Positions 29,696 to 45,446 of a DNA stretch of 64,000 bases are shown here, piece after piece (positions within the stretch are counted from its first letter, which is position 1; every line of letters starts with the position of its first letter). Both the position numbers and the translations under genes were made by a program. The notes under the pieces were generated by a model. That model was not told where the DNA came from. It did not search any database and saw only the letters and a program-made list of their open reading frames with translations. Origin of the DNA: a phage; the sequence record PZ019084.1. One strand, 5' to 3'.

Positions 29696-30058
29696 TTAAA
29701 AGAATTTAAATTTTTTCTTTGACCTTTTATTAAATGCATCTTGTAGTTGCATTGTAATACATTTTTCTACATGAGGAGCTAACTCAGCTTTTCTTTCTTG
29801 GTCAAGAACAGCAAAGTCCATTACGACTTTTCCATCAACCCAATCTAATTTTGTCACATACACAATGTGTGTAGAACCATCTTCTAGTTTAATGACAATC
29901 TCCTGGATAACATTTTCCATAGCGGATTTAATTATCTTAAGAGACTCATTAAAAAGACGTTCTTTTCTTTCTTCTTCCCCCTCCGAAGAGGGGGATTCAT
30001 CGATAATTTCTAGATCTAAATCTAAATCATCTTTATTCATTAAATTCTTCCATATCAC
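29696..30058 (-). CDS. 40: gp40-like protein (position between 41 and uvsX)
   Basis: 120-aa acidic ORF at the position gene 40 occupies in T4. Confidence 0.5.
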   Translation of the reverse strand: MIWKNLMNKDDLDLDLEIIDESPSSEGEEERKERLFNESLKIIKSAMENVIQEIVIKLEDGSTHIVYVTKLDWVDGKVVMDFAVLDQERKAELAPHVEKCITMQLQDAFNKRSKKKFKFF

Positions 30059-31214
30059 TTAACTGATCTAGGTCAGTTTCTAAATCAGCTGCTGATTTAC
30101 TTTTACTTTCTGGAGATTTAAATTTTTCAACCTTTGAGTTAATCAATTCATCAACTTCAGCTTCAACAATTTCATTACTATCAATAGCACCTAACTGATA
30201 AGCACGTTTAATAGCATCTCGGAATGGCTGATGCTTAAATAAAGGACCCCAGAATGTAGTGCAATTGGTATCTTTTGCGCGCCAAGATTTTTCTTCGCGA
30301 ATCATCTCGCCGGTTTCTTCGTCAAGAAATTCACGAGCATACCAGCCATTTTTAGGTTTTACTACAAATCCTAATTCAAGAGCCATATCTAACAATCCAG
30401 AATAAGGATCGATACCACCGTCAAATTTAACATCAATAAAGAATTTACTTTTTTCTTTAACGGTACGAGATTTTTCTACATTTAGAACAAATTGATACCC
30501 CTGAAGATCAGAACCATCTTTAATCTGGCGCTTGCCGATAATGAATACAGTATCAGCCGAATACATTACGCCTGTACCACCTGTCATCACGGTTTTACTA
30601 AACATTTCAATTGTTTCAATTGTATGGTTAACCGCAACACATGGAATGTTTTTAATACTAAAATAAGGAGTAACAATACGGAATAATGACTTCAGTGATT
30701 TAGCACGAGTCATATCTGCCACAGATTTTTCATTCAAGGCATCTTCCGTTTCTTTCTTAGAAGCCATATTACCAATTGAGTCGATGAATACAATAACTTT
30801 TTCGCCGCGCTCAATAGCTTCAAGCTGATTCACCATATCAATTTTCAGCTGTTCAACTGACTGGATTGGTGTATGAATTACTCGTTCAGGGTCAACTCCC
30901 ATGGATCGCAAATAAGCTGGAGTAATACCAAATTCACTATCATAAAATAGACAAACCGCGTCAGGATATTTGTTCAAATACGCCGCAACCATAGTCAAAG
31001 ACATATTTGATTTAAAGTGTTTAGAAGGACCTGCAAAAATGGTTAAACCAGACTGCATACCACCATCAATCGCACCTGAAATAGCGATATTGAGCATTGG
31101 AATTTTTGTACGGATTACATCCTTTTCATTAAAGAATTTAGATGTAGTCAGTTCAGCAGTCATTTTAGAAGTGGAAGCTTTAATCAAACGGGATTTTAAA
31201 TCTGCAATAGACAT
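30033..31214 (-). CDS. uvsX: UvsX recombinase (RecA-like)
   Basis: 393 aa, RecA fold with P-loop (GPSKHFKS), about the length of T4 UvsX. Confidence 0.9.
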   Translation of the reverse strand: MSIADLKSRLIKASTSKMTAELTTSKFFNEKDVIRTKIPMLNIAISGAIDGGMQSGLTIFAGPSKHFKSNMSLTMVAAYLNKYPDAVCLFYDSEFGITPAYLRSMGVDPERVIHTPIQSVEQLKIDMVNQLEAIERGEKVIVFIDSIGNMASKKETEDALNEKSVADMTRAKSLKSLFRIVTPYFSIKNIPCVAVNHTIETIEMFSKTVMTGGTGVMYSADTVFIIGKRQIKDGSDLQGYQFVLNVEKSRTVKEKSKFFIDVKFDGGIDPYSGLLDMALELGFVVKPKNGWYAREFLDEETGEMIREEKSWRAKDTNCTTFWGPLFKHQPFRDAIKRAYQLGAIDSNEIVEAEVDELINSKVEKFKSPESKSKSAADLETDLDQLSDMEEFNE

Positions 31215-31291
31215 TCATTTTTTCCATAGGCATCATTATATTTTCCTCACTGGTTAAAGATAGGGTAATTATAACACAATAAATTTAGGCA

Positions 31292-32140
31292 TTAATCAAC
31301 TGCTATTGGATGAATAGCATTAAACTTATGAAACGCTTCTGATTTTTCTTTGCGCGAAACACACATACGAAGAACCTTTAATGGCTCGTCTTCTTCACCT
31401 AACGATTTTCTCTTTTCAATATTCGATGTTTTCCAACGAGCTTGCTCTGGAAACTCTCTATTGATTTGCTCAAGAGCTCTATTATGTTTTGAATTACTAC
31501 GAATTGAACTACATCCACCGGGAGCCTGTGCTTTTCCAGATACAACCAGATATTTGAACAAAGCCAAATGCGGATAACCTTGATTAATTAAATTGAGAAA
31601 TGCATACATATCTTCGCATAAATCAATTTTTCCATACCCAATTTGTTCTGTTGTAAGTTTTCCAAGGTCATACCAGGTATTCGTGAATCCATATGAATTT
31701 TCACGATAATTACCCCAAGATGAAGTAATTTTAAAAATTGGTAGACGAGCATGACCATGATAATACCCACAATCCATGGCATCTTCAACGTATTGAATCA
31801 ATTCATAGAACTGTTCACGAGTTAATTGATTAATTTTATCTACGCAGCGACGATCATCTTTCTTTCGCATTGAACTCATACGAATAGTAGTATCATCATC
31901 AATCATCCAGATTCGTTGACCTGCATACATATCAGTAATTGCTTTACGAGTACCAGCAATTCCGTTAACATCATCAGGAATAGTTATAATTTTAGCTCTA
32001 GACCCGTAAGCGTCATAATAAGCTTTTTCTTCGTGTTCACGTACTACAATATGAGGTTCATAATCAGTCGGAAACATGTCAAGGGCAGAAACTGCCCCTA
32101 CGCGTTGATAGCTTGGAATTACGAATTGAATCATTTCCAC
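31292..32140 (-). CDS. putative DNA glycosyltransferase (candidate HMC-glucose-modifying enzyme)
   Basis: 282 aa with GT-A-like acidic motif (IWMIDDDTT); occupies the uvsX-42 slot where T4 has the 351-aa beta-gt. Confidence 0.45.
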   Translation of the reverse strand: MEMIQFVIPSYQRVGAVSALDMFPTDYEPHIVVREHEEKAYYDAYGSRAKIITIPDDVNGIAGTRKAITDMYAGQRIWMIDDDTTIRMSSMRKKDDRRCVDKINQLTREQFYELIQYVEDAMDCGYYHGHARLPIFKITSSWGNYRENSYGFTNTWYDLGKLTTEQIGYGKIDLCEDMYAFLNLINQGYPHLALFKYLVVSGKAQAPGGCSSIRSNSKHNRALEQINREFPEQARWKTSNIEKRKSLGEEDEPLKVLRMCVSRKEKSEAFHKFNAIHPIAVD

Positions 32141-32871
32141 TCACCATTATAATCTTTTTTCGCAATATGAGTTTCGCCAGTTTTCCACCAATGGTCAACC
32201 AAATAAAAATGACGGGAATACACATGAAGGCTCCCGACATTCCATATAATGGAACCTGCTTTATACTGACGAGTTGAATCACCTGCATTCAAATCAGATA
32301 CTAATTTATCTAGTACGTATTTTTGCCATGCATAATCATTACGGAATCCGAAGACCACGTCATTTGAACGCATGCTTACTACTGCATTGACTTTCTTATC
32401 ACGAATCAGGTACTGTACTGTATTCGTACACATGAAATCTGACATACCATCTTTATTGTAGTCAAACTGCATGGATGGACGAGTATAAATCATGATACCA
32501 CGTCGAGAATCAGGATTTTGACCAAGTTCAGCTAAACACATATCATACTGGGCATAGTTATCTTCTGACCAAATAGCCCAACCATAATTCGAGTTAATTT
32601 CGCCTTTAGAAGATGCTACCTGTTGCCAAATCTTCGGTGTTTCACCCGGAATATCTTTAACAAACAAACTTTTAGATTTATACCATTCAAGTTCACGCTG
32701 AATGTATTCATCATTAAGAGCGCCAAAAATAAAAGGTTCATCTGCTACAAATGATGCACCAATAATTTCAATAGTTTTAACCCCGGTTTTATCAATTACG
32801 AAATCTTTTTCCTTTAATGCAAGACCCAAATCAAGACGGATTTCTTCAACTGTCATATAATCGTTAATCAT
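32131..32871 (-). CDS. 42: dCMP hydroxymethylase
   Basis: 246 aa, same length as T4 gp42; thymidylate-synthase-like fold. Confidence 0.9.
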   Translation of the reverse strand: MINDYMTVEEIRLDLGLALKEKDFVIDKTGVKTIEIIGASFVADEPFIFGALNDEYIQRELEWYKSKSLFVKDIPGETPKIWQQVASSKGEINSNYGWAIWSEDNYAQYDMCLAELGQNPDSRRGIMIYTRPSMQFDYNKDGMSDFMCTNTVQYLIRDKKVNAVVSMRSNDVVFGFRNDYAWQKYVLDKLVSDLNAGDSTRQYKAGSIIWNVGSLHVYSRHFYLVDHWWKTGETHIAKKDYNGEWK

Positions 32872-32974
32872 TTAAACCTCAATTGATGCATTCATATTTA
32901 ATTTGTAACAGTAATAAACTCCAACCTATAATAAGTGGCGGAATCATAAGAGGAACTGTTACGCTATAGTATAT

Positions 32975-33005
32975 ACTTATTATAATCATCAAGATTAAAA
33001 GCAAT
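32975..33005 (-). promoter_or_regulatory. possible MotA-dependent middle promoter upstream of gene 42
   Basis: minus strand TTGCTTTT (MotA-box-like) about 12 nt upstream of TATAAT (plus attata 32979-32984). Confidence 0.35.
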
Positions 33006-33024
33006 ACTGCTAAAATTTTGCTTT

Positions 33025-33276
33025 TCATTCCTTCTCTCTGATGATAATTACTTGATTTTGCTGTACAGATTTTTTAGTTTCACCCGCAATTGACCAAATA
33101 AATGTAATAAACCAACCAATGATTGACCAGTTAAACAGTAAAGATGTGAAAAAGATTCCTACTGTCGATTTTGACCCACGCATCAAGGCGATGAACCACG
33201 GAAGCATGTATATAATAATAGCCAACACGCCTGAAACTAAAACCATAAAAATTGAACCTGCTACTAAAGTTTCCAT
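33025..33276 (-). CDS. imm: immunity protein Imm (superinfection exclusion, membrane)
   Basis: 83 aa with two TM helices; same length and position as T4 imm. Confidence 0.8.
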   Translation of the reverse strand: METLVAGSIFMVLVSGVLAIIIYMLPWFIALMRGSKSTVGIFFTSLLFNWSIIGWFITFIWSIAGETKKSVQQNQVIIIREKE

Positions 33277-33283
33277 GTTTTCC

Positions 33284-33664
33284 TCACTTAGTCAAATTTT
33301 TTACGCATGAATTGTAAGAATTTACTACATACTCCATCGGAGCATTTTTACCAGTACGCCATTGGTAATTATTAGCCCAATTAGCCCAAAGTTCAGCACA
33401 GTAGTTTTCAATTTTTTCTTCGCGTGTAATTACATCCGAATTACGATATGCTTGAGCAGATTCGTCTGGACGAATAGCTTCGTCAAAATTCGCCTGCATT
33501 TGTTCTACTGTCTGTTTTGGAGCTTCTTTATAACACTTGACGTTAGGATTATAAAATTTGCTTGAACAGTTTACAATTTTTCCTACATCAGACTGATTTA
33601 CTACTGGTCCTTGAGCTACACAACCAGTAAGACCTAATGCAATAACCAAAATAGCGATTTTCAT
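33284..33664 (-). CDS. secreted protein/lipoprotein (imm.1 position)
   Basis: 126 aa; signal peptide with lipobox LTGC. Confidence 0.6.
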   Translation of the reverse strand: MKIAILVIALGLTGCVAQGPVVNQSDVGKIVNCSSKFYNPNVKCYKEAPKQTVEQMQANFDEAIRPDESAQAYRNSDVITREEKIENYCAELWANWANNYQWRTGKNAPMEYVVNSYNSCVKNLTK

Positions 33665-33676
33665 AACAATTTCCTC

Positions 33677-33928
33677 TTAAAACTTAACAAATAATTTTAA
33701 AGCATCTTCAGTTTTAATTCCTTTTCTTACACCCATAACAGAAATTGGCTGTGACTGAAATTTTCCTTTGCCATTATAAATTTCTAACCCAGTCACCATT
33801 CCATTTTGTTCTATAATACCATAAGTATTACCTTCATTTTCGAATTCTTTAACTTTAAAGAGTTTATTAGCTTTTTCTGCATTAACAACTTTTAAATTTT
33901 GAATAAAATTAGTTTGAATGTTTTTCAT
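33677..33928 (-). CDS. hypothetical protein (~83 aa)
   Basis: start set at ATG 33928 (MKNIQTNFIQ...) after early promoter and SD ggagg; ORF-track form reads through the promoter. Confidence 0.5.
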   Translation of the reverse strand: MKNIQTNFIQNLKVVNAEKANKLFKVKEFENEGNTYGIIEQNGMVTGLEIYNGKGKFQSQPISVMGVRKGIKTEDALKLFVKF

Positions 33929-44227: not shown

Positions 44228-44245
44228 AAAGGGCCGAAGCCCTTT
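44228..44245 (-). other. GC hairpin (CGAA loop) overlapping a-gt stop
   Basis: aaagggccgaagcccttt. Confidence 0.4.
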
Positions 44246-45446
44246 ATTTTGTAATAATGTCAAACTGTTCTTTAAAGCAGAAGCTTGAATCTTGATGCTG
44301 ATACAAAAATTCATAAGCTTTTTCGCGTTCACGGTCATAAAGAGCTCGGTCAGATGACAGTTCTTTAATACGCTCAAATGTTGATTCCATGTCATTTTCA
44401 TCAAACCAAACGATACCGCTATCATGAGAAATTAACGGAGTATTATCAACACGGAATTTTAAATTTTCGCCAGTAGATTTCCAAAATACTGGAATTGTTC
44501 CACATGCACCAAGCTCGAGATGAGTATATTCTAAAGAACGTTGTAGATATTTTTTGTCCAACTTACTCAGCTGATAACCAAATCCAGATTTACTCATGCG
44601 TTCAAGCATTTCGCTATTTACATAACGGTCAAGAATTTGCGTTGGCAAATTAGGAGCAATTTTAATTTGGTCTACTTGATGAAGACGATAATACTCGTAT
44701 GGAATTCCTTTTTCTTTAATAGGAATGAACGCTGGAGAACGTTCCAGACCTTCCATAATAGTACTTAACCCTGCAGGTTTAAGATGTTTTTCGTGAAAAT
44801 CAAACATCTGATAAAAACCTTTCCATGTAGTAGTACGACCAATCCAACGGTTGATATTCATGTTAATTTCAGAAACATCTTTCCAGTAAGTTGATCGAAC
44901 CTTCGCAATATCCATAGGAGGCTGAAAGTTGTATACAGTCGGTGCTTCTTCAATATCATCAAACAGTGAAACAGTTTCTGGATACCATTCTTTCATCAGA
45001 ACTTTATTAAAATCACCATTATCAGAATGACTAAAAATAACATCAGCTCGGCGAACAGTTTCTTCTAATCCCAAATTTCGACGCAAAGAAAGAGAAGAAT
45101 GGTCATGTTGATAAACTACAACACGAACCGAAGGTTTAATGTTATCAATAATTTTTTTATAGTTATTAATAGTGTCTTCTTCGACTGAAGTAGCAGGAAC
45201 TGAATTGATAACTAGAATATCACAATCATTTACCAGCTTAAGCGTTTTATCGTATTCTTTTGCCAATAAAACCGGAATTGAAAATGATTTATAATCATGC
45301 GCGCAATTACGTGTAAATGATTTATCTTTAGCATAAACCAAAGTTACTTCATGACCATTTTTAATAAACCAATCACGCTGCTCAAGAGAAAATTTAGTTA
45401 CGCCACAACCTTCAAGACCTCGAGCCATAAAAATGCATACTTTCAT
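44244..45446 (-). CDS. agt: alpha-glucosyltransferase
   Basis: 400 aa, same length as T4 alpha-gt; position between 47 and 55. Confidence 0.85.
   Translation of the reverse strand: MKVCIFMARGLEGCGVTKFSLEQRDWFIKNGHEVTLVYAKDKSFTRNCAHDYKSFSIPVLLAKEYDKTLKLVNDCDILVINSVPATSVEEDTINNYKKIIDNIKPSVRVVVYQHDHSSLSLRRNLGLEETVRRADVIFSHSDNGDFNKVLMKEWYPETVSLFDDIEEAPTVYNFQPPMDIAKVRSTYWKDVSEINMNINRWIGRTTTWKGFYQMFDFHEKHLKPAGLSTIMEGLERSPAFIPIKEKGIPYEYYRLHQVDQIKIAPNLPTQILDRYVNSEMLERMSKSGFGYQLSKLDKKYLQRSLEYTHLELGACGTIPVFWKSTGENLKFRVDNTPLISHDSGIVWFDENDMESTFERIKELSSDRALYDREREKAYEFLYQHQDSSFCFKEQFDIITK

Follow-up and report, generated by a model that had tools for sequence, protein, structure and literature searches.

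A gene between uvsX and gene 42 of a phage genome very probably encodes a T2/T6-type beta-glucosyl-HMC-alpha-glucosyltransferase

The ba-gt genes of phages T2 and T6 were reportedly cloned and sequenced by Winkler and Ruger in 1993 (Nucleic Acids Res 21:1500, cited in PMC11946311), and the DNA of T6 carries 72% gentiobiosyl-hmC. The TAGT (TET-associated glycosyltransferase) family was named after members that lie beside TET/JBP dioxygenases. The T2/T6 enzyme, beta-glucosyl-HMC-alpha-glucosyltransferase (ba-GT, also g-gt or TAGT), has been equated with the family PF20691/TAGT, and an AlphaFold3 model assigned it a GT-A fold as a sister to GT2 (PMC13216743). Most phages pair TAGT with either an alpha-GT or a beta-GT, and the combination of alpha-GT and beta-GT was found in only 6 of 753 genomes, those of T4 and its close kin; in Tequatrovirus the majority of genomes have alpha-gt plus TAGT, and the T4 pair is the exception (PMC13216743). 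The TAGT gene is syntenic with the position of the T4 beta-GT gene (PMC13390438). T2 converts only ~5% of its hmC to gentiobiosyl-hmC (PMC6024577, PMC11078745), and both T2 and T6 keep ~25% unglucosylated hmC, without beta-glucosyl-hmC (PMC11078745, PMC13160076, PMC13390438). By LC-MS, ten wild Tequatrovirus phages with alpha-GT and TAGT were found to hold hmC, alpha-glucosyl-hmC and alpha-gentiobiosyl-hmC, in ratios of ~1:2:2 or of about one third hmC to two thirds gentiobiosyl-hmC. The gentiobiosyl form made up about two thirds in seven of the ten phages and ~40% in the other three, and beta-glucosyl-hmC was present in none (PMC13390438).

The locus described here lies in a window of 64,000 nucleotides, the whole stretch of phage DNA that was analysed (sequence record PZ019084.1). 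A sequence-only reading of this window had proposed a 282-aa glycosyltransferase-like gene between uvsX and gene 42. An ORF of that length does exist: the mechanical ORF listing gives 31292..32140 on the minus strand, with 282 aa counted from a GTG. The ORF was confirmed as real, far beyond chance, because it is kept at 47-99% protein identity in ~690 phage records. The GTG at 32140 was rejected as the ba-gt start, since all homologs and both T2 annotations begin with MIQFV at the ATG at 32134. Direct reading of the sequence around the start (...GGTGAGTGGAAATGATTCAA...) showed an ATGA overlap at 32131..32134 on the minus strand, formed by the TGA that ends gene 42 (32133-32131) together with the ba-gt ATG (32134-32132). 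Given the N termini of the homologs and the ATGA read at the gene 42 stop, translation almost certainly begins at the ATG at 32134. The ba-gt coding sequence would then span 31292..32134 on the minus strand, with 280 codons and a TAA stop, and the proposed length of 282 aa is to be replaced by 280 aa. A purine-rich GGTGAGTGGAA is located at 32145-32135, just upstream of the ATG. The annotations of T2 and of a Klebsiella Jiaodavirus also contain this 4-nt ATGA overlap of gene 42 and ba-gt. Because of this overlap, ba-gt appears to be co-transcribed with gene 42 and is probably translationally coupled to it. A generic promoter and terminator scan of 31000-33400 yielded 12 sites compared with 10.9±3.8 in shuffled sequence. 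As this is no excess, no transcription signal is claimed from the generic scan.

The ba-gt product matched PHROG 842 (beta-glucosyl-HMC-alpha-glucosyltransferase) over its full length with E=1.9e-89. The match to the Pfam family PF20691 (TAGT) scored 38.8 bits (E=1.2e-9, profile positions 2-205 of 205), above the gathering score of 27.5 bits, so that the proposed glycosyltransferase-like gene between uvsX and gene 42 was confirmed. Direct comparison with the T2 protein gave 276 identical residues of 280 (98.6%), and the four changes from the window to T2 are R11H, K92R, I101V and P251S. Five substitutions (Y40N, D55G, K92R, I101V and R106H) lead from the window to T6, with ~98% identity; relative to the window, the T6 record AP018814 shows these five substitutions and one record-specific deletion. 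The tblastn identities to T2 and T6 were 98.2% and 97.5%. The earlier guess of a beta-alpha-gt of the kind described for T2 and T6 was thus supported by the comparison with these enzymes. Only K92 and I101 set the window enzyme apart from both T2 and T6. Both residues also occur in the sequence that represents the largest homolog cluster (485 member sequences), and the window enzyme is therefore a mainstream allele.

The gene is widespread among deposited phages. A megablast search with the locus returned 597 phage records, of which 457 align over the greater part of the query with 80-99% nucleotide identity, and many of the matched records are annotated as beta-glucosyl-HMC-alpha-glucosyltransferase. 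With tblastn, a ba-GT homolog was found in 690 records of deposited phage genomes. At least 95% identity was reached in 472 of them, from Tequatrovirus phages of Escherichia, Shigella, Yersinia and Salmonella, and ~200 records at 60-80% identity belong to Klebsiella, Enterobacter and Salmonella relatives. Serratia phage Muldoon, at 47%, is one of a few matches at greater distance. PF20691 is carried by most of the homologs found. The copy in the window is free of stops and frameshifts and has lost no motif. Orthology and family membership are direct observations of this analysis. The gene is very probably a ba-GT of the T2/T6 type that makes gentiobiosyl-hmC together with alpha-gt.

Synteny and partner genes were likewise observed directly. 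The order in the window is uvsX (30033..31214), ba-gt (31292..32134) and gene 42 (32131..32871), identical to that in T2 and T6. The ba-gt genes of these two phages resemble the window gene in length (280 aa), in sequence (98-99% identity), in their position between gene 42 and uvsX and in the ATGA overlap, and the partners alpha-gt and gene 42 are present as in the window. T2 differs at 4 residues, and T6 at 5 substitutions plus record-specific lesions. The uvsX neighbor encodes a 393-aa UvsX-like recombinase, an identity supported by PHROG and Pfam. Gene 42 (32131..32871, minus strand; PHROG 160, PF00303) encodes a thymidylate-synthase-like dCMP hydroxymethylase of 246 aa that makes the hmC precursor and is near-identical to T4 gp42. 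The hydroxymethyl group in the window thus comes from gene 42, in contrast to TAGT family members associated with a TET enzyme. The alpha-gt gene (44244..45446, minus strand), which had been described as intact, indeed encodes a complete DNA alpha-glucosyltransferase of 400 aa (PHROG 2888, E=9e-222; PF11440, 782.7 bits over the whole profile, positions 1-355 of 355). A tblastn search with T4 b-gt found no copy in the 64-kb window (best E 1.2), and no second ba-gt copy was found in the same 64 kb. Given the published surveys, a b-gt gene elsewhere in the genome, beyond the window, is very unlikely.

As the sequence-only reading had stated, T4 carries the 351-aa b-gt between uvsX and gene 42, and this was confirmed, although the T4 interval holds the GIY-YIG homing endonuclease gene segA as well (T4, L002 4563-5400). 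segA sits between b-gt and uvsX; it is absent from 31215-31291 in the window, and also from T2 and T6. T4 b-gt occupies the same slot as ba-gt, between gene 42 and uvsX, and its general role is alike, namely UDP-glucose-dependent glucosylation of hmC-DNA in beta linkage (PMC13216743). The two differ in fold and size: T4 b-gt is a GT-B enzyme of 351 aa (PF09198), whereas the window ba-GT has 280 aa and a predicted GT-A fold. They would also differ in acceptor, which is the hydroxymethyl group of bare hmC for T4 b-gt and, by analogy with T2/T6, the glucose of alpha-glucosyl-hmC for ba-GT. Sequence comparison of ba-GT with T4 b-gt showed no similarity (blastp best E=3.4 over 8 residues), and the Pfam search of ba-GT gave no match to PF09198. 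What had been suggested as a different second-step chemistry, with ba-GT in place of b-gt, is not peculiar to this phage, as it is the majority in Tequatrovirus. In Serratia phage Muldoon, the interval between gene 42 and uvsX (L007 2025-4949) contains in a row a 308-aa hypothetical protein, the TAGT homolog (47%) and a T4-type beta-glucosyltransferase. Both enzyme types are thus placed side by side in a slot that is occupied by a single type in T4 and in T2/T6. T4 on the one hand and T2/T6 on the other could be read as alternative partial occupancies of one glycosyltransferase slot.

Several further features were seen around these genes. The 77-bp spacer between ba-gt and uvsX (31215-31291, minus strand) contains TGTTATAAT, an extended -10, and 11 nt upstream of it a TGCCTAA that resembles a T4 MotA box. 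Together the two elements resemble a middle promoter that would serve uvsX. This promoter-like site at 31215-31291 was not among the predictions of the generic sigma-70 scan. On the other side of gene 42, a strongly hydrophobic ORF of 49 aa (32879-33028, minus strand) occupies the 153 bp that separate imm from gene 42, with its ATG overlapping the imm stop. It differs at 6 of 49 residues from the corresponding T4 ORF (L002 7228-7377) and is unannotated in the T4, T2 and T6 records; in the Klebsiella Jiaodavirus there is no room for it between imm and gene 42. An ORF of 83 aa (MKNIQTNF...; 33677-33928, minus strand) lies between imm.1 and the DNA polymerase gene 43. The T2 hypothetical protein T2_046 has the same size and position, and nothing is annotated there in T4 and T6. 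Neither the 49-aa nor the 83-aa ORF had a Pfam match.

Searches of the PDB sequences with ba-GT, both with the single sequence and with a profile, gave chance matches only (E>0.2), so that the fold could be assigned solely from a predicted structure. An AlphaFold2 model was computed from an 11-sequence alignment (mean pLDDT 81.9, pTM 0.84), in which residues 135-149 and 205-212 form two disordered loops of low confidence. The comparison of GT-A and GT-B folds that had been suggested was run on this model and gave GT-A: the predicted structure forms one alpha/beta/alpha domain of Rossmann-like type and is similar to solved GT-A enzymes. The similar structures are mostly inverting enzymes, which fits a beta-1,6 linkage made from UDP-alpha-glucose. 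Among them are the GT2-like inverting GT-A enzymes TarP/TarS of S. aureus, the K4 chondroitin polymerase of E. coli and WrtF, which share 7-15% identity with ba-GT and were picked up by neither the sequence nor the profile search of the PDB. Unlike these enzymes, ba-GT would act on a sugar carried by duplex DNA.

The motifs expected of such an enzyme were observed at conserved positions. The DxD-like motif IWMIDDDTT, which had been noticed in the translation, is present and is encoded at 31886-31912 on the minus strand. Its DDD (residues 79-81 in 280-aa numbering; 31892..31900, minus strand) is invariant in all three Asp across 11 homologs, down to 37% identity. In GT-A enzymes, the DxD is expected at the end of a beta strand, and in the model the DDD directly follows the core beta strand 76-80 (282-aa numbering). 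By analogy, D79-D80-D81 would be the DxD motif that binds the metal and the nucleotide sugar, and ba-GT is probably metal-dependent. The N-terminal IPSY.R motif, which reads IPSYQR in the window and follows beta strand 1, is invariant in the same alignment; its Arg11 codon (CGC) is located at 32102..32104 on the minus strand. Glu174-Asp175, the ED of a CED motif (31610..31615, minus strand), are also invariant in the alignment and sit 94 residues beyond the DxD. In GT2 enzymes, the catalytic base is found at about this distance after the DxD, which makes E174/D175 a candidate for the base in an inverting GT-A mechanism.

Donor, acceptor, linkage and phenotype of the window enzyme can be proposed from the published work on T2, T6 and their close and wild relatives. 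In the proposed pathway, gene 42 would make hm-dCMP, which is incorporated into phage DNA. After replication, alpha-gt (GT-B, 44244-45446) would attach glucose in alpha linkage to about three quarters of the hmC. The ba-GT, as an inverting GT-A enzyme of the DxD type, would then transfer a second glucose from UDP-alpha-glucose in beta-1,6 linkage to the first, giving gentiobiosyl-hmC. The virion DNA is accordingly predicted to hold ~25-35% bare hmC, with the rest as alpha-glucosyl-hmC and gentiobiosyl-hmC and no beta-glucosyl-hmC.

The position of ba-gt in the T4 b-gt slot, together with the neighboring TAGT and b-gt genes of Muldoon, could also be taken to mean that the enzyme functionally replaces T4 b-gt as a first-step enzyme on the bare hmC left by alpha-gt. 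We regard this as very improbable. The enzyme shares no sequence similarity with T4 b-gt, and its predicted fold is GT-A rather than GT-B (PMC13216743). T2 and T6, with enzymes ~98% identical, leave ~25% of their hmC unglucosylated and contain no beta-glucosyl-hmC, and deletion of ba-gt in T6 abolishes gentiobiosyl-hmC, not monoglucosyl-hmC (PMC11078745, PMC13160076, PMC13390438). It is equally hard to credit that this TAGT-family enzyme uses a different donor or acceptor here, such as another hexose or a third sugar, and creates a modification unseen in T2/T6. The family is diverse, and its members occur with alpha-GT, with beta-GT or alone in different phages (PMC13216743), but the window enzyme differs from that of T2 at 4 residues, matches the representative of the 485-member cluster at K92 and I101 and keeps all invariant residues.

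A somewhat larger, although still small, probability was assigned to a ba-gt whose product has little or no activity, as is perhaps true of T2, so that the DNA would be essentially alpha-glucosylated only. The T2 protein, 98.6% identical to that of the window, converts only ~5% of hmC (PMC6024577, PMC11078745), and lesions in ba-gt are tolerated in sequenced T6 stocks. Against this, the window copy is intact and has Arg11 where T2 alone has His, and gentiobiosyl-hmC reaches about two thirds in 7 of the 10 wild Tequatrovirus phages and ~40% in the other 3 (PMC13390438). The T2/T6-type ba-GT is thus the reading retained; the gene in the window is ordinary and already known, and no novel reading of it survives.

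The T2 sequence itself showed an unusual residue. In T2 ba-GT (L003 1507-2349 and L005 3295-4137) residue 11 is His, and it is Arg in the window, in T6 and in all 11 diverse aligned homologs; at this invariant position, the window enzyme therefore has the family-consensus residue and T2 does not. A 40-aa query from the T2 N terminus was matched at 100% in 8 of 687 phage records by tblastn against deposited phages. The exact matches were seven T2 records and SV76, a phage with a genome as long as that of T2, and the best non-T2 records among the matches listed were one residue off the query. Pattern scans of IMG/VR for His11 and Arg11 returned 0 and 5 loci, numbers too small to be of help, and the tblastn count in deposited phages was used instead. 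The gentiobiosyl-hmC content of T2 is very low, and R11H is therefore a candidate explanation for it; speculatively, it may be a hypomorphic change. A doubtful but conceivable extension is that Arg11 belongs to a nucleotide-binding N-terminal motif, that the private R11H causes the low gentiobiosyl-hmC content of T2 (~5% compared with 72% in T6) and that the window enzyme is a fully active T6-type enzyme. If this were true, a single residue would predict the mono- or diglucosyl state of T-even DNA and hence its sensitivity to Brig1 and BapA.

The two independent T6 genome records each carry a different lesion in ba-gt. In MH550421 (L001 3007-3849), codon 10 of ba-gt is a TAG amber, and the CDS is annotated from an internal Met. 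In AP018814, which equals RefSeq NC_054907 (L004 3135-3974), a 3-bp deletion changes the invariant DDD to DD. These lesions may be stock mutations or sequencing errors. The RefSeq T6 TAGT protein is not a clean reference.

The sequence-only reading had further expected an altered sensitivity to glucose-dependent defences. T6 Δba-gt DNA carries only alpha-glucosyl-hmC and shows heightened sensitivity to the Brig1 glycosylase (PMC11078745). Gentiobiosyl-hmC cannot be deglucosylated by the glucosyl hydrolase BapA, but DNA of T6 Δg-gt can (PMC13160076). The expected sensitivity has therefore already been demonstrated for T6. For the phage studied here, the result is a routine prediction of T2/T6-type DNA only and adds no new biology. 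The ba-gt gene decides whether the hmC of the phage carries one glucose or gentiobiose, which also matters for GmrSD-type restriction. According to published work, the mono- or diglucosyl state alters the susceptibility of the phage to defences that recognize alpha-glucosyl-hmC, namely Brig1 and BapA-assisted Brig3.
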